Origin: a virus
Taxonomy: Duplodnaviria; Caudoviricetes
Length of the DNA stretch: 64,000 nucleotides
IMG/VR virus record: IMGVR_UViG_3300037722_000745
Coordinates: 224,001-288,000 of that record
Reading direction: 5' to 3' (one strand)
The notes beneath the pieces were generated by a model, which worked only from the letters and a program-made list of their open reading frames with translations, searched no databases and had not been told where the DNA came from. Positions 3,888 to 31,081 of this stretch are shown in pieces (the stretch's first letter is position 1; every line of letters starts with the position of its first letter). The position numbers and the translations under genes are program-made.

Positions 3888-3955
3888 TGCTGGGGAATCG
3901 AACCCCTGAGCGCCTGCATGCCATGCAGGCGCTCTCCCAACTGAGCTACAGCCCC
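3888..3955 (-). pseudogene. tRNA-Ala(GGC) with damaged 3' end
   Basis: Normal 5' half and loop ATGGCAT; T-stem/acceptor 3' strand collapsed to CCCCAGC. Confidence 0.65.
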
Positions 3956-3959
3956 TTAG

Positions 3960-4031
3960 CGCCCCCGGCAGGACTCGAACCTGCGTGACCCGCTTAGGAA
4001 ACGGGGGCCTCATCCGCTAGGCTACGGGGGC
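3960..4031 (-). tRNA. tRNA-Arg(CCT)
   Basis: Cloverleaf, loop TTCCTAA. Confidence 0.9.
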
Positions 4032-4396: not shown

Positions 4397-4468
4397 CCCG
4401 GGCGACGGGAGTCGAACCCGCTACATCCTGTTCCGTAGACAGACGCTCTTCCAATGAGCTACGCGTGT
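4397..4468 (-). tRNA. tRNA-Arg(ACG), acceptor stem mismatched (degenerate)
   Basis: D, anticodon (CTACGGA) and T arms normal; ACACGCG/CGCCCGG has three mismatches. Confidence 0.6.
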
Positions 4469-4496
4469 AAGCTATCTCTAGCGGAACGGCCTTCAG

Positions 4497-4544
4497 TGTC
4501 AGGACGTGGGATCGAACCACGCTGGCTTCCAAACAAGTCCTGAC
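4497..4544 (-). ncRNA. mini tRNA-like RNA (acceptor stem plus T-arm)
   Basis: GTCAGGA/TCCTGAC stem, CGTGG-TTCGATC-CCACG T-arm, only 16 nt between them. Confidence 0.6.
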
Positions 4545-4563
4545 GTCTCGCCGCAGCGAGCAA
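4545..4563. repeat. short-loop hairpin repeat (family B)
   Basis: GTCTCGCCGCAGCGAGCAA abutting the 5' end of the mini tRNA. Confidence 0.8.
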
Positions 4564-4592
4564 AGCAAATAGTTGTCTGGGGTGCAGACTAG

Positions 4593-4719
4593 CGGGGCTA
4601 TTGGGAGTCGAACCCAAGCTTGTAAGGACCAACAGCGTCTCGCTTGCACGAGAGAGGGTTGAACCTGGTTTGTTTCCTCGTTATTAGCAAGGTGACGGAC
4701 CGACCGTCTGTATAGCCCC
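4593..4719 (-). ncRNA. tRNA-like RNA with giant variable region (copy 1)
   Basis: GGGGCTA/TAGCCCC acceptor, two 5' hairpins, GCAA-tetraloop hairpin, CTTACAAGC motif, canonical T-arm. Confidence 0.7.
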
Positions 4720-4773
4720 AGTTCGGCCGGCCCAGACCATTCTGGACCGACCTTGGCGAGAAGAAGAAGACTC

Positions 4774-5346
4774 TCAAGTCCTAGTTACACCACCGGGATG
4801 CAATTCGAAACCAATTTTCTCCCCCGTGGCGAGAAATTCTTGGGCGGCCCTCGCCAAAAGGGTGGAAGCAACCCCTATGAAGGGTAAATGCTCACCGCCC
4901 TCGCAGGTAGCAGCCCCCGCCACGCCCTCGGAATCGATGATGAAGTTCTCGTCCCAGACAACCCGTCCGAAGGCCCCATCAGCCGCCAGGGCCCCATGCA
5001 GACACGGAATCTTGGAGTCCCGGGCGAAGCCCTGGACGAGCTGTCGTGAGGCAGCATTGTCCAAGCAATCGATGATCAAGTCGGTGTTGATGAGCAACTC
5101 CCGAACGTTGACCTCGGTGAGCTTGTGCGGCACGACCGTCGGCTTAAGACCGAACATAAACAACAGGGTTTGCCCGAGCGCCTGAGCCTTGTTCTTACCC
5201 ACGCTCGGCTTGCCGTGGAATTGGGCCAGGGTGTTCTTCTGTTCCACCCGGTCGAAGTCGATGATCTTGAGGTCGGCCTCACCCCGGAGGAACAAGGCCA
5301 AGTGGGAGCCTAGAGCGCCGGCTCCAACGATGGTTACGTACTTCAT
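4774..5346 (-). CDS. E1/ThiF-family ubiquitin-like adenylating enzyme
   Basis: VTIVGAGALGS nucleotide-binding motif, IIDFDRVEQKN, IIDCLDN, candidate catalytic Cys in AATCEG. Confidence 0.9.
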   Translation of the reverse strand: MKYVTIVGAGALGSHLALFLRGEADLKIIDFDRVEQKNTLAQFHGKPSVGKNKAQALGQTLLFMFGLKPTVVPHKLTEVNVRELLINTDLIIDCLDNAASRQLVQGFARDSKIPCLHGALAADGAFGRVVWDENFIIDSEGVAGAATCEGGEHLPFIGVASTLLARAAQEFLATGEKIGFELHPGGVTRT

Positions 5347-5365
5347 AGCGACCTCCTTGCGCTCT

Positions 5366-5800
5366 TTATCGCTTTGGCAAAAAGCGCCTAGATTCATTCA
5401 TGGCGTTTTCGTACTGACGCCATTGCACCAGCTCTTTGAGGTACTCAGCGATGCGTTCCTTGTTCGCTGGATGGTCAAGTTGTATGCCATCCTTAGTAAT
5501 CAACTCGACTACCTCATCCAGAGAGTGGTTCTCTGCTAACTTAGACACAGAACCGAAGGGGACCTTCGGCCTCAGTTGGATCAAGTTGTACGGACGAGCC
5601 TCGTTTGCCGAGAATCGGTCCACCACGAAATCCGTCAGGTCCACCTCCTGTGCGTCGATGCCGGGGATACCGCCCCGCAAGGCTTCAGAGACCCACCCTC
5701 GTACATCCCCGTCCGTTGAATCGAACGCCACCGGGTCCGGCAGGTCACCATTCTGACCGCCGTAGGTGACGTTCACCTTGGCTTCGTGTTCTGCGATCAT
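5366..5800 (-). CDS. ubiquitin-like protein (83 aa ending PKVPFG) with 61-aa C-terminal extension
   Basis: Beta-grasp-like pattern, Gly-ending motif at codon 5552-5554, position between JAB and E1 genes. Confidence 0.7.
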   Translation of the reverse strand: MIAEHEAKVNVTYGGQNGDLPDPVAFDSTDGDVRGWVSEALRGGIPGIDAQEVDLTDFVVDRFSANEARPYNLIQLRPKVPFGSVSKLAENHSLDEVVELITKDGIQLDHPANKERIAEYLKELVQWRQYENAMNESRRFLPKR

Positions 5801-6201
5801 GTTATACCTCCTTGTGATCCAATCTTAGGCAGCCCCGACTCTCGCCGAAGCTGTTCCATCCAGGGGGGCTTGTACAGTGCAGGTCCCTTGCGGTAATCCA
5901 AGCGTCCCGGACCGACCCAACATAATTCGCAGAATCGATCCGCCGTAGTGATCCACCAGACAAGACGCTTACCCAAAGCCGCTTCAACCGCGTGGAAGGT
6001 CGTCACATCCTCATAGGACGGGCCGGGCTCTCCAAACCCCGGGTGACTGTGAGCGAAACCCAGGACGCGCTCCCGGTGCTCCCAGATGACATCCCACAGC
6101 TCGCGGCTGTCGGGAAGGCTCCCCACGGTTCGACCCGCGGGATTGTGCCAGTAGATCGGGTTGCAATCCAGATCCACCAAAACTCCAGCTTCGACGCTCA
6201 T
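5797..6201 (-). CDS. JAB/MPN+ metallopeptidase
   Basis: E...HSHP...PSYED JAMM motif; in frame with an upstream Zn-ribbon ORF to 6459. Confidence 0.85.
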   Translation of the reverse strand: MSVEAGVLVDLDCNPIYWHNPAGRTVGSLPDSRELWDVIWEHRERVLGFAHSHPGFGEPGPSYEDVTTFHAVEAALGKRLVWWITTADRFCELCWVGPGRLDYRKGPALYKPPWMEQLRRESGLPKIGSQGGIT

Positions 6202-6459
6202 GTGATTCCCCGTGTTCTCCATTGTGCGGACCACTGAATGCACTGACCCAAACGGATCCACATAGCGACCCGGGTAGTCAGGATGTGTAGGGAGTTTGCC
6301 CTCCGAACAGTCGTATTGAGGATCCTCCGACCACCCGCAGTTAGAACAACCCCAAGGGCCGTAAATGACCCCAACCCCCACGTCGACCGAATCCTGCCTA
6401 CAGGGCTCGCTGCATTCCGGACATTTTAACTCTTGATGGTCCACTCGGTCTTCTCCCAT
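6202..6459 (-). CDS. Zn-ribbon hypothetical module read in frame into the JAB gene
   Basis: CPEC...WGCSNCGW; no stop before the JAB start. Confidence 0.5.
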
Positions 6460-6608
6460 TCAGCCACGCAGTCGAGGCAGAAACTGTCTTTGCCAGCCTC
6501 CTTCGAGTAGTCTGACGCTGCGAGCCACCGATGTGCCGACGGCCACGAGTTTGGCTCACCTGCGCCGCATAGTGCCAACCCGTGCCAAAGAAGGTGGACA
6601 ACCCTCAC
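6426..6608 (-). CDS. hypothetical protein
   Basis: ORF with 4-bp overlap to upstream gene. Confidence 0.45.
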   Translation of the reverse strand: MRVVHLLWHGLALCGAGEPNSWPSAHRWLAASDYSKEAGKDSFCLDCVAEWEKTEWTIKS

Positions 6609-6910
6609 AGCGACTGGACCTTCCAGTCGTCGAGATTACAGCCCTCGGGACCGTGTTCAATGATCTGCCTCACATGTCCGGGGCCAAACGGTACCTTGTG
6701 GTTGAAGGCAGCACCGCCCTCGAACTGGTCGTACTCATCTTGATCGGTCCATCGCCGCGACGTGCAGGTGAACTGCGTCGCCGCCCCGCCGCTGAGATCT
6801 TGGATCGTCAGCTTCAGTACCTTGGGGGTCCAGCCCTTGGTTCGCGGGGTGATCGCCCAATGGTACGTCGTACCCATGAACTCTAGTTTGCGTCCCTTGT
6901 GCAGTGCCAT
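6605..6910 (-). CDS. hypothetical protein
   Basis: Start MALHKG at 6910; track ORF over-extended. Confidence 0.6.
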   Translation of the reverse strand: MALHKGRKLEFMGTTYHWAITPRTKGWTPKVLKLTIQDLSGGAATQFTCTSRRWTDQDEYDQFEGGAAFNHKVPFGPGHVRQIIEHGPEGCNLDDWKVQSL

Positions 6911-6912
6911 CG

Positions 6913-7863
6913 CTAACCCACATGCCGAAACACTACAAGACGACCTTCCCGCTCCGCCTGGCGAATGACCGGCGGCAGAGATTCTAAACTCAACCAAGCA
7001 TCCCCGCGGGTGCCGCCCGCAAAATCCGTGTCGTCGTAGTGTGCCGTCAGACAGATGCCCGCGTCGATGATCTGTAGAGTCCGAGCGTCGCATGTGCACT
7101 CGTAACGCCGCCCACCCATCCGGAACCGCACGACCATCTCGTTGCGTCGCGGGGCCTGCCGGTGATCGAGATACTCAGCCTCACCAACCGCGAGAGCCGC
7201 CCGAGCCGCGGTCCCGAAATCCTCTTGGGCCAACGCCCGCCGGCCAGCACCATCACCGAGCTGCTCCGCGATCTCCCGACGACGGGTTTCCCGCTGCCGT
7301 TCCTCTTCCTCACGCTGAAGGCGTTCCGCCAGCTCCCGCCGACGCCGCTCCGCCTCCAACCGCCGCCACCGCTCAAGCGTGAAGGCGACATCCAAAGCCG
7401 GCGACACCTCTCGGATATCAGCTAGCGTATCCTTGCCGTCCAGAAAGGCCGTCTGCACCTCGAACTCGGGCCCCAGAGGCATTTCTTGCTGGATGTAGAC
7501 CAACGGGCCGTCCTCGGACACGCGGCCCGCAGAGACCCGTACGAAGCGATCTAGGCCCGGTTCGATGAGATGGACCCGCTCCGTCTCGCTCTTAAAGGAG
7601 GCGAGCTTCCTTTGCGAAGCCGACACGAGCCGATCGCCGACCAGGTAGCCTACCTCTCGGTACTTGAGCTGCTCCGGCTCGGGATCACACACCTCCTGGA
7701 CCCGAGCCGTCCGACCGCCCACCGAGAACCGAACCCAGCCATGCTCCGCCGGCAGCCGACCCTCGATCACCCACCGACGTGGGCCCGACCGGAGGGACCT
7801 ACCCCCAATCCAAGGCGCGACAAGCGTCTCGCCTTCAGTCGCAAGTAAGTCTCTCCAACCCAT
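6913..7863 (-). CDS. conserved protein of the Ubl operon (coiled coil, Cys-containing C-terminal domain)
   Basis: Start MGWRDLL; charged coiled coil; RYECTCD...DAGICL; 5' part paralogous to 8330..8713. Confidence 0.75.
   Translation of the reverse strand: MGWRDLLATEGETLVAPWIGGRSLRSGPRRWVIEGRLPAEHGWVRFSVGGRTARVQEVCDPEPEQLKYREVGYLVGDRLVSASQRKLASFKSETERVHLIEPGLDRFVRVSAGRVSEDGPLVYIQQEMPLGPEFEVQTAFLDGKDTLADIREVSPALDVAFTLERWRRLEAERRRRELAERLQREEEERQRETRRREIAEQLGDGAGRRALAQEDFGTAARAALAVGEAEYLDHRQAPRRNEMVVRFRMGGRRYECTCDARTLQIIDAGICLTAHYDDTDFAGGTRGDAWLSLESLPPVIRQAEREGRLVVFRHVG
7583..7618. repeat. solitary CRISPR-repeat-like unit (family A) inside a CDS
   Basis: GTCTCGCTCTTAAAGGAGGCGAGCTTCCTTTGCGAA. 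Confidence 0.8.
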
Positions 7864-8084
7864 GGCCCAGCCACCTATTACACCGATTAGGCTGCCAGCA
7901 AACAACCAAAACGAAGGGATTCGCCCCATCAAAGTGGAATTACTACCACTGTCACGGCGTCCAAATTTTGGTTTGGGATGTCACATGAGGGTTAATTAAA
8001 CACCCTGATTTCAACGACGTGTTGGGTTTGGCCTACTTCCTGCAAGCCTGGCGGAGCCCTCCTGGGGCCAAAATGGAGATGAAA

Positions 8085-8300
8085 ATGAAAGACACAGAAC
8101 GCCTGCTGCCCTGGAACCAACACGGCGACATTCACCACACGTTCACGAACAAAGGGTCTGGAATTGTCTACCCGCACGACGAAGGCTTCCACTGGGAAGT
8201 TTTTGGTGGTGGAGACAGCTCCTGGCACGACCAGGCGGAATCTCTACACTCAGCTAAAGCCCACGTAGAAGGCACCTTTGTGGGTCGCGGCCTGATTTAG
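8085..8300 (+). CDS. hypothetical protein (opposite-strand insert)
   Basis: GGAG then ATG at 8085. Confidence 0.55.
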   Translation: MKDTERLLPWNQHGDIHHTFTNKGSGIVYPHDEGFHWEVFGGGDSSWHDQAESLHSAKAHVEGTFVGRGLI

Positions 8301-8329
8301 ATCGACAAGCGGGGCGTCGTCTAATTTCA

Positions 8330-8713
8330 CTACCAGACGACGCCCCCACCTCGTTTTTCAAGCCGGCCCGCAGAGACCCGTACAAAGCGATCTAGGCCCG
8401 GTTCGATGAGATGGACCCGCTCCGCAGCACGGAGAACCTCCCCGTCCGCTTGTCCAGCCTGAACCGAGGACGGTACGAGGCGATCTCCAACGAGATAGCC
8501 AACCTGCCTGTGCCACAGGCTTTCTAACTCAGGTTCGGCCAGAGCCTTGACCTGAGCCTTACGTCCCTCCAACGCAAACTCAATCCAGCCATGCTCTACA
8601 GGAAGGCTCCCCTCGATGACCCAGCGACGGGAGCCCGACCGGAGGGACCGGCCCCCAACCCAAGGTGCGACAATCGTCTCACCTTCTTTCTGAAGTAGGG
8701 TCCTCCAAGTCAT
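8330..8713 (-). pseudogene. truncated 5' duplicate of 6913..7863
   Basis: MTWRTLLQKEGETIVAPWVGGRSLRSG...ERVHLIEPGLDRFVRVSAGR then unrelated tail. Confidence 0.75.
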
Positions 8714-9642
8714 GACTCTCCAACCCTAATCTTCCAGGACTCCAAACTCTCACCACGTCTTCTACGTCGGGCCAACTTCAGTCTTGCTTCGGGGGTACTA
8801 AGAGCCTTCGTTATAGCCTCGCTATGTTTGGCTTTAACTTCGGGGATACTGAGTGTCTGGGCTATAGCCCTACCGCGTTTCTCTTTCTCCCCAGGTTGAG
8901 CCCATTGGCCTTTCATCCTACGACTCATAGCGGCCAGCCGTTCCAAAGTCATTGATGCTTGAACACCAATCTTATGGCGCTTCTTCACCTCAGGTAGGGC
9001 CAGTCTCTTAGCTGCCTCAATGCTTAGCTTCTTTCGCACCTCACTTGTATACCCGGCTTTTTGAAGCTTGATGCGTTGCCCCCTTTCCTCGGCCGAGTAC
9101 CCAGCCCAAGATGCCTTAAGACCCGCACTACGTTTCTCCTTCTCACCGGGTCTGGAGTAAACCTCCAACATCTTAGCTCTACGACGAGCTTTAGAATCAG
9201 GTTGACTGCAGGCCAAGATCAACGCTTCACGGTGCCTAGCCTTTACGTCGGGCCGTGCCATAGCTAACTTTACCCCAGCACTGTTCTTAGCTCGAACCTC
9301 CGGCCTATTCTGAGCCTCTTTCCCAGACACCGACATTTTCCGTCGAGTCTCTGCCGAAGGCTTCCCGTTTGACCCACCTGTCTTCAGATTGTACCCAAGC
9401 GGAGACAGAGAGGTGGCCACCCATTTAATTTCCAGCGCATCCAATTCCTCTTTCGAGGATGCCTCACCAACGACCTCAAACACGAATTTGTCTCGGCCAT
9501 ACTTGGCGATAGCCGCCCGCAAAGCGTGGCAATGGCTGTCAGTCCTGAAATGATGTGACCACCTCTCCGAAGGGTTGATGGTTTGACCGTGGTAACATTT
9601 TCCGCTGACCAAACAACGAATCCTGTAAACCAAACCGTACAC
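8710..9642 (-). CDS. GIY-YIG homing endonuclease with NUMOD3-like repeats
   Basis: GLVYRIRC...YHGQT...R...E..GYN; SAETRRKMS-type basic repeats. Confidence 0.9.
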   Translation of the reverse strand: MYGLVYRIRCLVSGKCYHGQTINPSERWSHHFRTDSHCHALRAAIAKYGRDKFVFEVVGEASSKEELDALEIKWVATSLSPLGYNLKTGGSNGKPSAETRRKMSVSGKEAQNRPEVRAKNSAGVKLAMARPDVKARHREALILACSQPDSKARRRAKMLEVYSRPGEKEKRSAGLKASWAGYSAEERGQRIKLQKAGYTSEVRKKLSIEAAKRLALPEVKKRHKIGVQASMTLERLAAMSRRMKGQWAQPGEKEKRGRAIAQTLSIPEVKAKHSEAITKALSTPEARLKLARRRRRGESLESWKIRVGES

Positions 9643-9652
9643 AACCGCAGTT

Positions 9653-11590
9653 TTAGCAAAAGGCTGCTGGCTTCTGCAACAGATCCGTCTTGAGAATGGT
9701 TTCCACGAGGGTTACTCGCGGAGCGGCCTTTACCACTGCCCTACCTACCGGCGTGGCAGCGATCATGGCTCGGATGGTAGGCGGGATCGCGTAGGGATCC
9801 GCGAAGATCCCCTCGTCGATCATGAAGCACGGGATGCCGAGTTGGGCTGCCGTGTCCGTGACCGCGTGGTACATGGGGGAGCTGCGGACCTTCAAGAAGC
9901 CAAATGCAATCGGGTTGAGGCCCGAAGCTTGGACCGCCTTATGGAACGGGCCAGCCTCCTCATCTCCGACGAAGATAAACAACACATCCTCGTCCGGCTG
10001 AGGCTTATGTTGATTGAGAGCCCGAACCCCCGCTCCGTAGTCAGTCCCTCCTCCTGCATGGATCCCGCGGAACGCCTGTTCGACGCCCGCTGCGGATTCA
10101 TGCTTAAGGGCAATCTCTCGCCCCGTAGTGTTGAAGACCGAGATGTGCACCTGGTCCTTGGGGAAGCCCTGTAGGAACTTCGCCAAGTAGCGCTTGGCTT
10201 CGGTGATCGCGTTCTGCATGGATCCCGAGATGTCCACCATGAAGTAGATCCGCAAACCCTTCACGACTTCCTCGACCGCCGCCTTGAGGGCGTTGTCGGC
10301 CGCCTCGTTCAGCTTCTCTTGGGTCGCCTTCGACCGCACTCGGGTCGCGATGTTCGCTGCCCGCATGTCGTCGGCTTCCTTAGTGGCACACTCCCACCGC
10401 TCTCGAATCTCCTGGACCTCAAGAAGTCCAAGCTCTTCGAGCGTTGGGGTTGCGATCAAAAGGTCCTTGTTGGAAAGAGACCCTGCCTCGATGGCTGCCG
10501 CCACAATCGCCCGCGTCAGCCCCATACCCTTCGGCAGGAGCCCCACGATGCGCTTGAAGTTAGGCTTGGTCGCAACGATAGTCTCGCAGACCTGCTCCTC
10601 CGAAAGGCCCTCCCAGGACTCCGCAGCCTTGACAGCCTGGCCGATGGCGACGGTACGGTGACCCTCGTCGGCCTGCTGCTGCCCCCACCGCAGCGTCTCG
10701 AAGAACTTTGGTGAGGTCGGCTTGTACCGGCAGGCGATGGCGAGTTCGATCACCTTCGTCCGGAAGCCCGCCTTGACGAGGCCCTCCAACATCTGAGGGT
10801 TCTCTTCACGGTACCGGAGCCACTTCTCCGCCGCCTTGGGCCAACGACCCATGAACGGCCGACGAGCGGACTTGCCAAAGCCCAGCTCCCGGTTGATCTC
10901 GGCCACCTGCGGCAGCCGTAGGATGTCGTGGATCCGCATTAGAAGCTTGGGATCGAATGTCTTGATCTCGTTCTTCTGTTGTGCCCCGTCACCTTGAGAG
11001 CGGGACCGGGTGAGCAGCAGCATGGCCTCACCGACATCCCGGTAATCCTCGTCGAAGAACAGGACCTTGCCGTTCTCAACAACCGGGTCACCCTTGCGGT
11101 ATTGCACGAGCATGAACGCCGCGAGAATGACCTTCAGGTCCCGGTGCTCCTGCCCGAATGCGTAGCTGGCCCACTTGGCGGCGAACTCGTTGTCGAGCTT
11201 CCAGACCTCGGCGACCTGCTTGTACATCCAGATCACGACCTCCGGGTAGAGGCCGGGCGGCTGGTAGCGACCAACAGCGCGGTTGCCGTCCTTAACGATG
11301 ACATCGCCCTGAAGCACTGGGGCGAGCGTCGCGGGGTTCCGACCCGTGGTCATCTTCCCGAGCTTGACCTTGGTGCCCTTCCGACGGCCCACGCCCTTGC
11401 GAAGCTCGTAGACGATCTTGTCGCCCTCTTCCTCTGCGTGGGTCACCGGCAGCCACTTCGTGCCCACCACGGAGCCAGGATCTGGAATCACTACGCCTGG
11501 TCGGTTGTGCATTGCGTGATCAGAATACGAGAGGACCGTCTGGAGGATTCTCTCAGCCGGCCCGAGTGCGTTCTGTTCGTGATTTGGCAC
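9653..11590 (-). CDS. vWA-domain protein with large helical N-terminus (possibly TROVE/Ro60-like)
   Basis: MIDAS motif FMVDISGSM, GGTDY, FVGDEE; GTG start at 11590 after GAGG. Confidence 0.8.
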   Translation of the reverse strand: MPNHEQNALGPAERILQTVLSYSDHAMHNRPGVVIPDPGSVVGTKWLPVTHAEEEGDKIVYELRKGVGRRKGTKVKLGKMTTGRNPATLAPVLQGDVIVKDGNRAVGRYQPPGLYPEVVIWMYKQVAEVWKLDNEFAAKWASYAFGQEHRDLKVILAAFMLVQYRKGDPVVENGKVLFFDEDYRDVGEAMLLLTRSRSQGDGAQQKNEIKTFDPKLLMRIHDILRLPQVAEINRELGFGKSARRPFMGRWPKAAEKWLRYREENPQMLEGLVKAGFRTKVIELAIACRYKPTSPKFFETLRWGQQQADEGHRTVAIGQAVKAAESWEGLSEEQVCETIVATKPNFKRIVGLLPKGMGLTRAIVAAAIEAGSLSNKDLLIATPTLEELGLLEVQEIRERWECATKEADDMRAANIATRVRSKATQEKLNEAADNALKAAVEEVVKGLRIYFMVDISGSMQNAITEAKRYLAKFLQGFPKDQVHISVFNTTGREIALKHESAAGVEQAFRGIHAGGGTDYGAGVRALNQHKPQPDEDVLFIFVGDEEAGPFHKAVQASGLNPIAFGFLKVRSSPMYHAVTDTAAQLGIPCFMIDEGIFADPYAIPPTIRAMIAATPVGRAVVKAAPRVTLVETILKTDLLQKPAAFC

Positions 11591-11635
11591 GATCCACCTC
11601 TCTCGCAACCCTCCGCATGGGAGGGGAATTGCCGC

Positions 11636-11654: not shown

Positions 11655-11781
11655 ATTACCGCTAAGGAGGATGACGGCGCCCGTGGTGTCTACTACACCG
11701 AAAAGCCAGAACTCGACCGAGTTAAAGAGAGCGGGTTTTTGCTGGACCCTGGATTCCCCCGGAAGGGCAGGTCGAGTTTAG

Positions 11782-11853
11782 TCGGGGTGACAGGGATCGA
11801 ACCTGCGACCTCTCGCCCCCAAAGCGAGCGCTCTACCACTGAGCAACACCCCG
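11782..11853 (-). tRNA. tRNA-Pro(TGG)
   Basis: CGGGGTG/CACCCCG, loop TTTGGGG. Confidence 0.9.
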
Positions 11854-14732: not shown

Positions 14733-14963
14733 TCACGCGCTGCCCGTATAAGCCACGCTGAAAACCATCCCCGACATCACGAGCACTTCCTGGCCGTGAG
14801 TCAAGCTCCCGTTCATCTCGTGGTACTTCTCCCGTAGCTTGCAATGAAACACCACCGTCGGGTTGTACTCCGACTTGAGTTCCGCCAGCTCAACCACATC
14901 CTCGTAGCTCAGAACCTCTGCGTCGGTCTGGAAGTCCTGTCCATTGACTTTGAAACTGGTCAC
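14733..14963 (-). CDS. stand-alone ubiquitin-like protein (multiubiquitin-domain type), 76 aa
   Basis: GGAGG then GTG; pattern FKVNG..LSYEDVVELA..TV.F..G.L..GQ.V.V..GMVFSV..TGSA. Confidence 0.7.
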   Translation of the reverse strand: MTSFKVNGQDFQTDAEVLSYEDVVELAELKSEYNPTVVFHCKLREKYHEMNGSLTHGQEVLVMSGMVFSVAYTGSA

Positions 14964-19754: not shown

Positions 19755-20009
19755 GTCCCACTCTTGATGGAGGTGGGCTTCCGTTGTGACCGTGCGGATT
19801 TCGGAGATGACGCTGAAGCCGTCATCGGTCCCACTCTTGATGGAGGTGGGCTTCCGTTGTGACTTCGCTCCGATCGCAATCCCGCAGGATCGCGACCAGC
19901 CGTCCCACTCTTGATGGAGGTGGGCTTCCGTTGCTGCCAGGCAGGACGGCTCGAAGTGGCTAAGATGATGTTGGTCCCACTCTTGATGGAGGTGGGCTTC
20001 CGTTGCTGC
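19755..20009 (-). CRISPR. CRISPR mini-array, 4 x 36-nt repeats, 3 spacers (37, 38, 36 nt)
   Basis: Repeat GTCCCACTCTTGATGGAGGTGGGCTTCCGTTG(TGA/CTG)C at 19755, 19828, 19902, 19974; orientation inferred from leader position and tRNA strand. Confidence 0.95.
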
Positions 20010-20170
20010 AGTGCGCTCAAAAAGACCTAAAATTTCCAAAGAGCTGAGAGCCGGATTGCGAGAGCCTCTGCAAACTCCCGCTAAATCCGACTCCATGGAG
20101 AGTACTACACTGTTCACAGAGAGCGCAAGACCCTAAATTCATTGTCTTGCGAGCGATCCCCGGGCTCCAG
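20010..20170 (-). promoter_or_regulatory. putative CRISPR leader
   Basis: Non-coding, AT-richer, near-IHF-consensus ATTCATTGTCTTG. Confidence 0.55.
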
Positions 20171-26715: not shown

Positions 26716-26953
26716 CTGGTTTCTGTACCTGATCCAGAATTCCTCTGGGAAGATCTACACCGGCATCTCACCAGACCCTGAAAAGAGGGTGCAAGTCCAC
26801 AACACCGGGAAAGGTGCCAAAGCAACTCGTGCCGGTCGACCATGGAGGTTGGTCTATACAGAGTGCTGCGGCTCCAAAGGTCAAGCGTTGCGACGAGAAC
26901 TAGCCGTCAAGAGGTTGTCTCGAGATCAGAAACTAGAACTGATCGAGACCTAA
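26690..26953 (+). CDS. GIY-YIG nuclease (UPF0213/SLX1-like)
   Basis: FLYLI...YTGIS.DPEKRVQVHNTGKGAK.T...RPWRLVY.E...ALRRE. Confidence 0.9.
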   Translation: MSCESKTLIWFLYLIQNSSGKIYTGISPDPEKRVQVHNTGKGAKATRAGRPWRLVYTECCGSKGQALRRELAVKRLSRDQKLELIET

Positions 26954-27624
26954 TCTGCCTGAGGAAGCTTCCCCACAAGCTCGCGAATACGCTCGGCCTC
27001 CTCAGCTTCCCGTAGCTTCGCCTTCAATTTAGTTGAACGCGCCAAGTGCGATGGCATTGGCTTGTCGGCTTCCATGCCCCATGCATCCCAACCAGGTGGA
27101 CACCCTCTAGCAAACAACTCAATGCGTGAGGTATCCCCAAAAAGCTCCTCAATACGCTCCCGAACCTCTGGCGGCTTGCTAGAGTGCCCCGGTGGTCGTG
27201 GGGCGAACACATACTGGCTCTGGCTCTCGGTCCTCAATGGCAGCGTGCGACCCCGCTTCTGTGTTGAGCCTATGAGCACGATCTCGCCTAGCTGTTTCAC
27301 AAAACTCGGCCGCACCCCCTGACCTTCGATGACCTTGCCGTCCTTCGTCGTCTTGATCCAGAAATAGGCGATACCGCGGTAGTAGAAGCCCCACTGCCGG
27401 ATGAGGTCGATCGCCTCTGCGAGCTTCGGCCCGGTCGCCCACATGAACAAGACTCCCTTACCATCGATGAGCTGGCGGACTGGCAAAGCTTCAAGTTCCT
27501 CGAAGGACATCATGTTGTAATGTTTGCCAGCCGCCTGGTCCTTATCCGGGTCGCCATAGTATTCCCATGGCACGTCAATGTGTATAACCCGATAGACCGA
27601 CGGGAGAGTATCTAAGGGCCTCAT
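26950..27624 (-). CDS. MT-A70-family adenine methyltransferase
   Basis: IHIDVPWEY, LFMWAT, WGF.Y, HSSKP.E, IELFAR..GWDAWG. Confidence 0.9.
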   Translation of the reverse strand: MRPLDTLPSVYRVIHIDVPWEYYGDPDKDQAAGKHYNMMSFEELEALPVRQLIDGKGVLFMWATGPKLAEAIDLIRQWGFYYRGIAYFWIKTTKDGKVIEGQGVRPSFVKQLGEIVLIGSTQKRGRTLPLRTESQSQYVFAPRPPGHSSKPPEVRERIEELFGDTSRIELFARGCPPGWDAWGMEADKPMPSHLARSTKLKAKLREAEEAERIRELVGKLPQAD

Positions 27625-27773
27625 CGGAACACCCGGTAACCTCGACCCTCAAGAAAACCTACAGCGAATTCTTCAAAGTCGGCGTCGGTTAAATCACCTA
27701 AAGCTATGTTGATTCGATTACACACCACACGAACGTTGTCCTGCGTGTAACCTAGAGTCGAGTCAATACCCAC
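27621..27773 (-). pseudogene. HNH-like endonuclease C-terminal remnant
   Basis: IDSTLGYTQDNVRVVCNRINIAL; under the ORF-track size limit. Confidence 0.6.
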
Positions 27774-27777
27774 GTAA

Positions 27778-27905
27778 CTACGACCTGCATGCAGGGCTGC
27801 GACGCAGGGTCGTCCCCGATCCGCAGTAGGGATCGAGCGTCACCCCACCGCGGGGCGTGACGAGTTTGACGAGCCGCTCCATCAGCGCCAACGGCTTCAT
27901 GGTCG
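27778..27905 (-). pseudogene. partial duplicate of the methyltransferase C-terminus
   Basis: PTMKPLALMERLVKLVTPRGGVTLDPYCGSGTT versus PTMKSLSLMEWLVKLVTPRGGTTLDPYCGTGTT. Confidence 0.8.
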
Positions 27906-27973
27906 GGACTCCCAACAAGGGCCCGCAGAAACGACCTTGTAGCGGCCCGCCAGCGTCACAAGGGAGGGCGGGT

Positions 27974-30900
27974 TCATTCCTCCGGGACCAGTTCTTCGAG
28001 ACGAGATGAGATGTCCGCGAGGTCGTCATCAAATGCTTTGTCTCCCGACTTCGTGCGGAGTGCCTTCAGGCGAGCTTCGGCCAGGGCATGGAAGTCTGGA
28101 TCCTTCTCGATTCCGACGTACTGACAGCCCGCCTGAATAGCCGCTACACAGGTTGTCCCTGTTCCGCAGTACGGATCGAGCGTTGTCCCACCTCGGGGCG
28201 TAACGAGCTTGACCAACCATTCCATGAGGGAGAGAGATTTCATCGTGGGGTGAGGGTTCTTCGCTCCCTTCATCCAACCTTCACGCTCTTGCTTGCTGAC
28301 CTTCGCTGTGTAGAAGAATGGAGCCTCAGGCTCGAACTGACCGAAGTAGCGTGAAGCCCCTCCTCCCTCACCCACTACCGATGATGGTTTTGACCCATCA
28401 GCAGTTGTGACTGCCCCGTGGTAGCCCATACCCTTTTGACATTCACCGGAGAACCATCCCGGGGCTCTAAAACCGCTCTGCTTGTCCAACGCCTTGACCG
28501 GACACCCCTCGACACACTCGTAGACGGGGATCTCCTCCATCCCATCAGCATCACCTTGCGGCTCTGACGTGTAAGAGTGTCCGGCCCCATCACCGAACGG
28601 CTTCATCCCGTCATCGAAGCGGTTGATGACGGGGGCCTTGACCCGCTTCGAACCTACGACCTCACACTCGGTCGAATGAATCATCAGAGTGTTAGCTGGC
28701 CAACGCCCATGATTGTGGACCTCCGTCTCCACACCCCCGACCATCCCCTTCACCATCGTGTTGCGAGCTTTGCCCGGCGAACTGCTGTTGGTCCGCGTCG
28801 TGTGGCCGATCCGCGTCGCATCGATATTCAGCCCGCCCGTACCGTGCTTCAGAACGTTCTGAGCAACAGTAGCCTCCGAAAGAGGCTTACGGAACACTAA
28901 TATCGGTTCCCACGAGGGTTTAAGAGCCGTGCCAAGGCCATCAAATTGTGAAGCGGCTTCGGAGTCCACCCCTGCCTTCAACACCGCTTTCTTCACATTT
29001 AAACTCTTGGGAAAACCAGAGTTACCTGTGATGAACACCCTACCATTGCGTCGAGCTACGAACGCCCCAGTCTCCACGCGAACACACCACACCTCCCCGT
29101 CATAGTCTTTCAGATGGGTCGCATGGAGATGTCTGGACTGTAATTCCGTAGTCCGATTGTCGTGCAACGAAACACAACGCTTCTTCGCGTTGTCCCGACC
29201 TTGCCACCCGATCATGTGGGCCAGGACCTGAAACCACTCACGGTCAACACCGTCTTTTTGGTAGAATTGCTTCTGGCCTACAGATCCATCCCCGTCCATA
29301 GCTGCGGATAGAAACGCCCTCTTCTCATCAAGGGTCATCCGCCACAACAGGTCGTAAGTTGGATGTTTGCCGGGCAAGATCTCTCGAACACTCAGAGCCG
29401 GTTCGCCCGAGAAGAACCACGTGTATTCTGTGTACTCCCGGCCCTTGTATGTGCGTACCCTCTCGTACTTTTTGAAGTCGGGAGCGAACTTCTGAGTCAA
29501 CCGATCAATCTCAACCACATGGTCGGGATTGACACTGCTCTGGTAAATGCGAACACCCGTCCAGGAGTTATCGAATCCGCCCTCAGTCCAGATCCACGCC
29601 AAGAAAGCAGCGTAGTCTTCCCCGCCAATCCCCGCCCCATCGTGGTACCCAGCCAATGGTAGCTTGATTGCTTGCCACCGATTGATCTCAGCAGCCTCCA
29701 TCGGAACCCACTCTTCCTCGAACCACTTGCGACGGGTTTTTGCTACCTGTCTACGGATAGCGTGTCGCTTGAATACGCGATGGTTAGGGGTCAGTAGCTG
29801 ATCGGTGTTGTCGTTACGAAAGCACACCATCGACCCCTGGTAAGGGGCTCGGAACACTTCTAAGACAGGACGTAATCCAATCCCCTCTGTGGCCGGGTCC
29901 CACGTGGCTACCGACAAACCTTCTTTGAGTTGGTCCGGTCCCACCCACCCGTGCTCAGTGAGAATCTCACTATCCTCACTGAGACACCCGTAAACCCACT
30001 GGAACACCTGGACGCTGAACTGCGCTGCTACGGTATCTCGACACTCAAAACCCGCGAATCGCAGTCCCATCGAGATTAAGTCGAACGTGCGGGTGGAGCC
30101 AAAGCTCAAGAGGTGCCCGCCGGGCTTGAGGGCGCGGTAGCATTCCCTCCATACGGCAACGGGCGGGATTTCCCAGGTATGACCCATAAAATCTTTATGT
30201 GTCTTGTGTGGTGAATGGAAACGATCCAACAGAACCCTTGGCACCGCAACGTTCAACGTAATTGCCCCGCCTGCGGGCAACCCTACCTTGCAAGTCAGAA
30301 AGCGCTTGAGAAGCGTCGTCAGACTACCTGCTCCAGACGCTGTTCCTATACACTCCGAGGAAGTCAGAAGAAGTCGAGCGTCGGCTTGGTCTGCGGGGTC
30401 TGCAAAAACGAGTTCACCAGAAACCCGAGCCACATCAAGGGTAAGCACGGCGCAAACTTCTGTAGCCCTATCTGTCACTATAAAGGGCGCTCCCTCGGGC
30501 TCTCCAAACGGATTGTGTACAAGCCGTACAACCATACGAAACAAGGCCGGGCCAACCGAAGTAAAGCAGCCGCACACCTCTACGCATCCGGTAAAGGTTT
30601 GGCTTTCCCGAAGACAGAACTGGCGGTCCTTGAGCGCCTCAAAACCCAAGGAATCAACGTTGTCCACCAGAAGGTTGTCGAACTTCCCGACAGGGCCTAT
30701 GCGGTTGACTTCTTTTTCCCCACTAGAGCCGACGGGGGTTTGATCATCGAATTGGATAACCCCGGACGACATGATCGGGGGTTGATGCACGCTGACTTTG
30801 AACGAGACAAGATCTTGAGCGAATTGGGGTTCGAGGTCGTCCGCTTGTGGGACAACGGACGACCGGAGAATGCTATTCGCGCAGTGCTGGACACCCTTCT

Positions 30901-31081
30901 TCAATGGCCCGAGAGACGGAGCGCCTCCAAGGTACCGGATGATGTCCTCTGCGGTAGGTTCTCTAGAAGATAGACCATACGGGGGGTCAGTGACGATCGA
31001 GTCAACGCTGGAGTCAGGGAGCGTCTTCAGGACTTCGAGGCAGTCGCCCAGGTGGACCTGGTTAGGTTTCAGAGCTGGCAT
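27974..31081 (-). CDS. N6A/N4C DNA methyltransferase carrying an intein and a second in-frame insertion
   Basis: DPPY at N-terminus, LDPYCGTGTT at C-terminus, LKPGG and YG-SGFPKS motifs. Confidence 0.9.
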   Translation of the reverse strand: MPALKPNQVHLGDCLEVLKTLPDSSVDSIVTDPPYGLSSREPTAEDIIRYLGGAPSLGPLKKGVQHCANSILRSSVVPQADDLEPQFAQDLVSFKVSVHQPPIMSSGVIQFDDQTPVGSSGEKEVNRIGPVGKFDNLLVDNVDSLGFEALKDRQFCLRESQTFTGCVEVCGCFTSVGPALFRMVVRLVHNPFGEPEGAPFIVTDRATEVCAVLTLDVARVSGELVFADPADQADARLLLTSSECIGTASGAGSLTTLLKRFLTCKVGLPAGGAITLNVAVPRVLLDRFHSPHKTHKDFMGHTWEIPPVAVWRECYRALKPGGHLLSFGSTRTFDLISMGLRFAGFECRDTVAAQFSVQVFQWVYGCLSEDSEILTEHGWVGPDQLKEGLSVATWDPATEGIGLRPVLEVFRAPYQGSMVCFRNDNTDQLLTPNHRVFKRHAIRRQVAKTRRKWFEEEWVPMEAAEINRWQAIKLPLAGYHDGAGIGGEDYAAFLAWIWTEGGFDNSWTGVRIYQSSVNPDHVVEIDRLTQKFAPDFKKYERVRTYKGREYTEYTWFFSGEPALSVREILPGKHPTYDLLWRMTLDEKRAFLSAAMDGDGSVGQKQFYQKDGVDREWFQVLAHMIGWQGRDNAKKRCVSLHDNRTTELQSRHLHATHLKDYDGEVWCVRVETGAFVARRNGRVFITGNSGFPKSLNVKKAVLKAGVDSEAASQFDGLGTALKPSWEPILVFRKPLSEATVAQNVLKHGTGGLNIDATRIGHTTRTNSSSPGKARNTMVKGMVGGVETEVHNHGRWPANTLMIHSTECEVVGSKRVKAPVINRFDDGMKPFGDGAGHSYTSEPQGDADGMEEIPVYECVEGCPVKALDKQSGFRAPGWFSGECQKGMGYHGAVTTADGSKPSSVVGEGGGASRYFGQFEPEAPFFYTAKVSKQEREGWMKGAKNPHPTMKSLSLMEWLVKLVTPRGGTTLDPYCGTGTTCVAAIQAGCQYVGIEKDPDFHALAEARLKALRTKSGDKAFDDDLADISSRLEELVPEE
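29021..29986 (-). mobile_element. intein (322 aa) with LAGLIDADG-type endonuclease
   Basis: YG|CLSEDSEILTEHGW ... VWCVRVETGAFVARRNGRVFITGN|S; internal AMDGDGS. Confidence 0.92.
30215..30973 (+). CDS. Zn-finger plus DUF559/Vsr-like endonuclease nested antisense inside the methyltransferase
   Basis: CPAC/CSRRC/CGVC/CSPIC fingers; YAVDFF..LIIELD...H...DFERDKILSELGFEVVRLW. Confidence 0.85.
   Translation: METIQQNPWHRNVQRNCPACGQPYLASQKALEKRRQTTCSRRCSYTLRGSQKKSSVGLVCGVCKNEFTRNPSHIKGKHGANFCSPICHYKGRSLGLSKRIVYKPYNHTKQGRANRSKAAAHLYASGKGLAFPKTELAVLERLKTQGINVVHQKVVELPDRAYAVDFFFPTRADGGLIIELDNPGRHDRGLMHADFERDKILSELGFEVVRLWDNGRPENAIRAVLDTLLQWPERRSASKVPDDVLCGRFSRR

Follow-up and report, generated by a model that had tools for sequence, protein, structure and literature searches.

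The window analyzed here is a stretch of 64,000 nucleotides (bases 224001-288000) of the 323-kb IMG/VR phage record IMGVR_UViG_3300037722_000745, a record estimated to be 68% complete. It carries a cassette of five co-oriented genes which encode, in order along the minus strand, a vWA protein, a protein designated p339, a JAB-family JAMM peptidase, a ubiquitin-like protein (Ubl) and a ThiF-type activating enzyme (E1). Based on sequence comparisons and structure models, we consider the chances evenly divided that these genes form a self-contained Ubl modification cassette of a previously undescribed family common to huge phages and myxobacteria. The Ubl/E1/JAB core of this proposal is well supported. 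The cassette goes far beyond chance, and the same gene order is found again in IMG/VR, in metagenome contigs, in the GenBank phage Virus Rctr197k and on bacterial chromosomes. The literature searched contained no description of the five-gene cassette.

The source of the window is a very large soil or sediment phage, and metagenomes from both sediment and soil hold DNA near-identical to it. All 42 tRNA genes of the record and its tmRNA gene are located on the minus strand at window positions 455-23829. The cassette lies inside this array, between tRNA-Pro(UGG) just upstream (11781-11853, minus strand) and tRNA-Arg(ACG) just downstream (4398-4467, minus strand), both identified by ARAGORN and Rfam. 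A preliminary description of the window had proposed five co-oriented genes within the tRNA array, and all of them were found in their expected places. Pfam searches over the cassette matched ThiF (PF00899, 77.6 bits against a cut-off of 28.1), VWA_2 (34.9 bits) and Prok-JAB (22.3 bits, slightly under the 25-bit cut-off), and returned no family for p339 and the Ubl. A promoter and terminator scan gave no signal above chance, and Rfam at a relaxed threshold revealed nothing but tRNAs across the cassette.

Ubiquitin-like protein, E1 and JAMM peptidase

The Ubl (83 aa, 5552-5800, minus strand) is predicted to adopt the β-grasp fold, on which the preliminary description had staked its proposal. 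An AlphaFold model built from 17 sequences has a β-β-α-β-β arrangement with a flexible tail (predicted local distance difference test score, pLDDT, 91.4; predicted template modeling score, pTM, 0.78). The structural neighbors of the model are almost all ubiquitin-like or β-grasp proteins, including ubiquitin, SUMO, ISG15, PB1, FAF1-UBL, MoaD and TtuB, and template modeling scores against the PB1 and ubiquitin clusters of the Atlas were 0.5-0.6. At the sequence level, the PDB gave no match to the Ubl with E < 0.5. The modeled fold and the flexible, Gly-ending tail are those expected of a β-grasp modifier.

The Ubl ends with RPKVPFG (Gly83 codon at 5552-5554), and the PFG ending pointed out in the preliminary description belongs to a motif that is constant in homologues, RPK(T/V)PFG apart from one RPKAEFG and one RPPTPFG; R-P-K-x-x-F-G is shared by all 17 aligned homologues. 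A C-terminal Phe-Gly is present in all 17 phage and all four bacterial homologues, whereas ubiquitin, the SAMPs, ThiS, MoaD and Urm1 have a Gly-Gly C-terminus. In most relatives, the reading frame ends directly after the motif Gly or after 1-4 further residues, whereas in this phage it continues for 61 codons (5366-5551, minus strand), which may represent a pro-peptide or a captured insert. Among the relatives, only the locus L017 and Rctr197k also have long tails, and no homologue of the 61-aa tail was found elsewhere. A separate open reading frame (ORF) of 76 aa located among the tRNA genes (14733-14963, minus strand) matched Pfam Multi_ubiq with 24.7 bits (cut-off 24.5). Its sequence is unrelated to that of the cassette Ubl, it is absent from the related loci fetched, and it stands as an orphan 3 kb from the cassette.

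The E1 is a minimal ThiF/MoeB-type domain of 190 aa (4774-5346, minus strand), which starts with an ATG at 5344-5346 preceded by an AAGGAGG site. Its best solved relative is E. coli MoeB (1JW9, E 1.8e-15). Residues G9, G11 and G14 (GxGxxGS), K54, D94-C95-x-D97-N98 (DCxDN), R102 and T148-C149 are invariant in 16 homologues and comprise the predicted nucleotide and Mg motifs together with a crossover-loop Cys. This residue, Cys149 (codon 4903-4905), aligns with Cys187 of MoeB, and the candidate catalytic Cys suggested in the preliminary description would correspond to it. The protein has neither the zinc CxxC motifs nor the C-terminal sheet of MoeB. The NCBIfam models for ThiF, MoeB, UbaA, PRTRC ThiF and the 6A-MBL Cap2-like family all scored far below their cut-offs, and the E1 therefore falls outside all of these curated families. 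For PRTRC_ThiF the score was 33.9 bits against 144.75, and PRTRC models produced no matches with the other cassette proteins, which places the cassette outside the PRTRC group.

The JAMM/MPN+ peptidase ORF (5797-6459, minus strand) contains the complete E...HxH...S..D zinc motif predicted for these enzymes. The residues E90, H137, H139, S148 and D151 are constant across 13 relatives, in agreement with the intact motif reported earlier. The ORF represents an in-frame fusion of an 86-aa Zn-ribbon piece (6202-6459, phrog_6115) with a JAB core of about 134 aa (5797-6201), which has its native ATG at 6199-6201 with GGAG upstream. The JAB core of relatives has a size of 122-160 aa, and the N-terminal Zn-ribbon piece was not found in any of them. 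An assembly artefact was considered for this fusion and for the Ubl tail and was rejected, since contigs from other samples match both regions with zero differences. A variant locus (L034) on a 543,854-bp contig of a Polyangiaceae metagenome-assembled genome (MAG) lacks JAB and encodes a Ubl ending exactly with FG, which fits a role of JAB as the maturase; in this locus, the p339 match is read through one TGA.

These three proteins might instead work as a sulfur carrier system. The E1 would adenylate and thiocarboxylate the Ubl, which would donate sulfur, for example for the thiolation of neighboring tRNAs, and JAB would only expose the Gly, as in CysO/Mec+ or QbsE/QbsD, with no protein conjugates formed. 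This is in line with the best profile matches of the E1 (ThiF, MoeB, MoeZ and Uba4), with the alignment of its invariant Cys with the loop Cys of MoeB/ThiF, with the presence of TtuB and MoaD among the structural neighbors of the Ubl and with the location of the cassette in tRNA arrays. However, every Ubl homologue ends with Phe-Gly, whereas the sulfur carriers known to us end with Gly-Gly. The cassette also has no rhodanese domain, cysteine desulfurase or PP-loop thiolase, and it includes two constant partners, the vWA protein and the OB/coiled-coil protein p339. In view of these differences and of the low ThiF, MoeB and UbaA scores, we regard a sulfur carrier function as quite unlikely.

p339 and the vWA protein

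The protein p339 (316 aa, 6913-7863, minus strand) most likely starts with the ATG at 7861-7863 (MGWRD, as in relatives) and not at 7932. Its structure model (mean pLDDT 81.6) comprises two small OB-like β-barrels in tandem, a coiled-coil helix of about 50 residues and a C-terminal α/β domain. The latter contains helices and a meander of four to five strands, then a variable loop, one more helix and a last strand. The Cys of its D-A-G-I-C-L motif (codon 7051-7053) follows a four-stranded meander. Conservation was computed over 139 family representatives sharing no more than 50% identity, and the two most conserved positions were G270 (100%) and C272 (99%, 138 of 139), both within [DE]-[AS]-G-[IV]-C-L. 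The neighboring Cys and His positions vary, and the motif is therefore not a zinc site. In the bacterial copies, C272 is the only Cys kept. The p339 family falls into 509 clusters when a 50% identity threshold is used and into at least 946 with a 90% threshold, with members on contigs of up to 659 kb. None of these clusters has a name or a Pfam domain, and no fused Pfam domain was found in the longer family members.

The preliminary description had recognized no E2 and had suggested that p339 may take the E2/E3 role. The first of these statements agrees with our searches. The E2 families UQ_con and Prok-E2_A/B/E gave no match in the whole 323-kb record (Prok-E2_C and Prok-E2_D were not searched), and no ubiquitin-conjugating (UBC) fold was returned for p339 by five fold searches (the PDB by Foldseek and VIA wide, AFDB clusters, Swiss-Prot models and the Atlas). 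The rows obtained in these searches were OB/cold-shock, Mpa inter-domain, PepSY, DsbC-N and, weakly, RWD domains. p339 falls outside the UBC family. The suggested E2/E3 role is in line with its near-invariant Cys but not with the lack of an E2 family match and of a UBC fold, and we give about even odds to p339 being a functional equivalent of E2/E3. Complex prediction for the E1, the Ubl and the C-terminal domain of p339 produced a score of 0.00, which speaks neither for nor against binding.

The first cassette gene encodes the vWA/MIDAS protein (651 aa, 9653-11608, minus strand), which has a helical N-terminal region of about 440 aa and a C-terminal vWA domain with the invariant MIDAS residues D459, S461, S463, T522 and D549. 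By protein-language-model features, its neighbors in the Atlas belong to TROVE and DUF2828 clusters, with scores of 0.90-0.93 when the whole protein is used and of 0.81-0.84 when the comparison is limited to the N-terminal part. The TROVE Pfam model matched nothing in the phage record (E up to 10) or in five related complete phage genomes, and Pfam scans of the individual members of the vWA-protein family revealed no TROVE match. The 440-aa helical region matched no hidden Markov model (HMM) and no PDB sequence, and none of the solved Ro60 sequences was matched. In hhalign comparisons with eight TROVE proteins from Myxococcota, the vWA protein aligned colinearly over 273-291 columns (P 0.0025-0.011), whereas the helical part alone, with the vWA domain removed, scored 22.4, which is within the range of block-shuffled controls (maximum 26.3). 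The likeness of the vWA protein to Ro60/TROVE is therefore an unproven lead and not a result.

Two non-canonical tRNA-like elements are located between the E1 gene and tRNA-Arg (4468-4773, minus strand; fold z-score -3.9), and neither ARAGORN nor Rfam called them. One element of about 128 nt combines an acceptor stem of 8 bp and a T-arm with a very long variable region, and the other represents an acceptor/T-arm minihelix. Outside the window, roughly 7 kb past its start and 11.5 kb downstream of the E1 gene, there is an RtcB RNA ligase gene (G000:C1:215981-217240, minus strand; 292.9 bits), which shares its strand with the cassette and the tRNA array. Known Ro60/Rsr and Y RNA systems include rsr-yrlBA-rtcBA of Salmonella, Rsr of Deinococcus and Ro60 of the Thermus phage phiLo (PMC12135203). 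The vWA protein shares with Ro60/Rsr an architecture in which a vWA domain with all MIDAS residues comes after a large helical region, and the phage has tRNA-like non-canonical RNAs beside the cassette as well as the RtcB gene. In contrast to Ro60/Rsr, the vWA protein has no match with the TROVE HMM or any solved Ro60, and the YrlA (Y RNA-like) match in the array is weak (24.3 bits against a gathering score of 69). This match (3931-3985, minus strand) overlaps the junction between tRNA-Arg(CCU) and a partial tRNA (Rfam model positions 8-63; 3891-3948, minus strand) that abuts it.

It is conceivable, if doubtful, that the cassette couples Ubl tagging to a Ro60-like RNA-protein particle. In that case, the vWA protein would be a diverged Ro60 ring carrying the tRNA-like RNAs of the array, and p339 would bind RNA via its OB pair, while its invariant Cys would tag the particle or a bound tRNA-handling or translation factor. 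We know of no Ro60 locus that carries Ubl, E1 and JAB genes.

RNA also figures in an explanation without protein conjugation, in which the E1 would adenylate the Ubl C-terminus for MccB-like amidation, for cyclization or for attachment to a nucleotide or RNA end, with p339 and the vWA protein as RNA-binding scaffolds. ThiF-like enzymes also drive peptide C-terminal chemistry, the N-terminal part of p339 weakly resembles RNA-binding OB/cold-shock pairs, the tRNA-like RNAs come directly after the E1 gene, and the RtcB gene lies downstream on the same strand. However, the combination of a JAMM isopeptidase with an invariant terminal Gly is a signature of reversible conjugation, and we are aware of no precedent for a β-grasp protein joined to RNA. 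Such chemistry appears very improbable.

Occurrence in phages and bacteria, and inserts in this copy

When IMG/VR was scanned with the E1, 18 loci were obtained, of which 16 are distinct; the largest contig measures 536 kb. Within the fetched flanks, the order vWA-p339-JAB-Ubl-E1 is kept in 14 of the 16 distinct loci, with 43-70% protein identity. In one locus (G005), the five genes are present in the same order and spread over 13 kb, and the vWA gene was not found on the fragment G006. A variant locus (L035) has JAB and Ubl swapped, with the Ubl before JAB. Further cassette copies were found on other metagenome contigs and in Rctr197k, and overall the gene order is kept in about 20 huge-phage loci. 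Rctr197k is the only GenBank phage with any similarity to the window, and its copies of these genes lack annotation or are labelled hypothetical. In its record (L027, KX853510.1 176293-191240), the vWA gene is annotated as a misc_feature, p339 is unannotated with an opposite-strand coding sequence over it, and the E1 alone is named (ThiF-like).

The cassette is not phage-specific. A species-genome scan identified it in MAGs labelled Polyangiaceae, Myxococcota, Proteobacteria and Gemmatimonadota, and p339 occurs in 9 of 201 sampled genomes of the order to which the Polyangiaceae MAG belongs. All five bacterial loci fetched contain all five genes in the same order. Two of them (L047 and L048) lie deep in large contigs, one of 3.48 Mb with 12 flanking tRNA genes and the other of 3.22 Mb with 17. 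Among the phages, tRNA genes flank the cassette in 14 of the 16 loci and in Rctr197k. Since the same gene set is present beside tRNA genes in myxobacterial chromosomes, the cassette is probably a shared cellular module and not a phage-only weapon. The chromosomal tRNA arrays around it could themselves be of phage origin.

These findings bear on the view taken in the preliminary description, in which the phage would use its own ubiquitylation against the host, host defenses or competing phages. The Ubl would tag host proteins, host-defense proteins or rival phage particles, or JAB would strip Bil- or CBASS-type conjugates. Bacterial E1/E2/JAB/Ubl operons do act in phage defense, the present family is very common in huge phages, as the number of p339 clusters at 90% identity indicates, and the orphan Multi_ubiq-type ORF is just 3 kb away. 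However, the PADLOC matches were confined to generic E1 parts of E1-E2 models, no E2 of the families searched was found, and no defense or anti-defense gene is linked to the cassette within the window. The same cassette is also chromosomal in myxobacteria (contigs of 3.2-3.5 Mb), again between tRNA genes, where a function useful to the cell fits better. The anti-host or anti-defense reading is unsupported, and we hold it to be improbable. The recurrence of the tRNA-array link on a bacterial chromosome weakens it and favors a role in tRNA, RNA or translation. A target tied to these processes is more likely than one in phage-host warfare, because the cassette is located inside tRNA arrays in most of the phages and on two bacterial chromosomes.

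In the window, the cassette is interrupted by a homing endonuclease gene and small inserts, as the preliminary description had noted, and the core genes are unbroken. The GIY-YIG endonuclease gene (8710-9642, minus strand; PF01541 2e-11; TIGR01453 64.8 bits against a cut-off of 56; phrog_314 2e-33) lies between the vWA gene and p339. Most relatives do not have it there, and the locus L010 has a related remnant at the same place. Its stop codon is overlapped by the ATG of a truncated paralogue of the p339 N-terminal domain (127 aa, 8330-8713, minus strand), which aligns to p339 residues 1-122 and is not present in related loci. The DNA of this paralogue and that of p339 are about 70% identical overall, but 98% over its last 61 nt (8364-8424 versus 7523-7583), and 50 of 51 bases agree at its 3' end. 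The near-identical stretch ends at a repeat insertion, and it has the appearance of a junction left by recent recombination or gene conversion in connection with the insertion of the endonuclease.

The inserted repeat (7583-7619, no strand assigned) is a copy of a dispersed hairpin repeat of about 36 nt, which is in frame with p339 and replaces a loop of the OB region. Relatives carry other residues at this site, and a contig from another sample spans it without differences. The repeat family (GTCYCRCTCTT..GGAGGYGRGCTTCC) has 10 copies in the first 25 kb, at 7583, 14574, 16876, 19356, 22473 and 22941 and in a CRISPR-like four-copy array at 19755-20015 with a spacing of 72-74 nt. Two small lineage-specific ORFs occupy the gap between p339 and JAB (6605-6910 and 6426-6608, both on the minus strand); they match no Pfam family and lack homologues in all loci fetched, and in compact relatives the p339-JAB distance is about 10 nt. 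Just beyond the tRNA array, the region 26950-31081 (minus strand) encodes two proteins, an MT-A70 methyltransferase of 224 aa and a protein of 1035 aa in which N6/N4 DNA methylase domains are combined with others of the methyltransferase type.

Proposed mechanism, related systems and significance

In the proposed modification pathway, the JAMM peptidase would trim the Ubl precursor after Gly83, removing a 61-aa tail in this phage and 0-4 residues in most relatives, as the conserved motif and the C-terminal pattern suggest. By homology, adenylation of the exposed Gly would fall to the ThiF-type E1, whose invariant loop Cys may accept the Ubl. The Ubl would then reach a target amine via the invariant Cys of p339, which would serve as a non-UBC equivalent of E2, with its OB and coiled-coil parts choosing the target. 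Alternatively, the Ubl may be transferred directly from the E1, as in E2-less systems. The vWA/MIDAS protein, as a constant partner, may be an adaptor, a Ubl receptor or the main substrate, possibly in the form of a Ro60-like RNA-binding ring, and the JAMM peptidase may also reverse the modification.

Several points weigh against this proposal. The case is built on sequences and models throughout. The nearest profile relatives of the E1 are the sulfur-carrier E1s MoeB, ThiF and Uba4, and the E2 family searches of the record and the fold searches with p339 came back empty. There are no tRNA genes near the cassette in three of the five bacterial loci and in several phage loci, and synteny inherited within a single phage clade may account for the tRNA linkage.

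The cassette is closest in function to the E2-less Ubl systems (SAMP/UbaA/HvJAMM1 and TtuB/TtuC), and in gene content to Bil and CBASS Cap2/Cap3. It shares with archaeal sampylation (SAMP1-3/UbaA/HvJAMM1) and Thermus TtuB/TtuC a small β-grasp protein with a terminal Gly, a single ThiF/MoeB-type E1 and the lack of a recognizable E2. In those systems, a JAMM peptidase matures and removes the Ubl, and they are also linked to tRNA through thiolation. In contrast to them, the cassette Ubl ends with Phe-Gly and not Gly-Gly, and the E1, a minimal domain of 190 aa, has neither zinc motifs nor a rhodanese domain and is scored by the SAMPActivE1UbaA model with 46.8 bits against a cut-off of 450. In addition, the vWA protein and p339 have no counterparts there, and the cassette has no TtuA/NcsA-type thiolase. 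Judged by the UbaA score and the Phe-Gly C-terminus, the cassette belongs to neither the SAMP/UbaA nor the TtuB/TtuC systems.

The likeness to Bil (BilABCD) and CBASS type II Cap2/Cap3 lies in an operon with E1, JAB and (in Bil) Ubl genes, and in conjugation of the C-terminal Gly of the Ubl through Cys thioesters, which would be shared. Unlike them, the cassette lacks a UBC-type E2, whether as a protein of its own or as part of the E1, its vWA and OB/coiled-coil partners are new, and it is located in tRNA arrays and not in defense islands. There is no CD-NTase among the cassette genes (no search aimed at CD-NTase was made). Bil consists of BilA (Ubl), BilB (E2), BilC (JAB) and BilD (E1), and the cassette falls outside it, as no E2 was found. 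It likewise has no E2-E1 fusion of the CBASS type II Cap2/Cap3 kind, since the E1-E2 models of PADLOC align with the cassette E1 over their E1 part alone (in one case, positions 267-409 of 489). PADLOC gave no matches for the cassette Ubl, JAB, p339 and vWA proteins.

The known roles of bacterial Ubl/E1/JAB operons are sulfur transfer by carrier proteins and, as found more recently, conjugation directed against phages. The present family adds a Phe-Gly Ubl, a stripped-down E1, the absence of a UBC-type E2 and two constant partners, one of which has a single invariant Cys. It is abundant, with hundreds of sequence clusters in huge phages from soil and sediment and with chromosomal copies in myxobacteria, and it is found repeatedly inside tRNA arrays. 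The components of the cassette are small, and the predictions made here are directly testable in E. coli or Myxococcus. If conjugation is shown, the cassette would represent a new enzymatic route for Ubl transfer and could for the first time connect protein tagging with the tRNA arrays of huge phages. Should the association with a Ro60-like particle prove true, prokaryotes and phages would possess a counterpart of the Ro60/Ro52(TRIM21) pairing of eukaryotes, and the supply or repair of tRNA during infection would be controlled in a new way.

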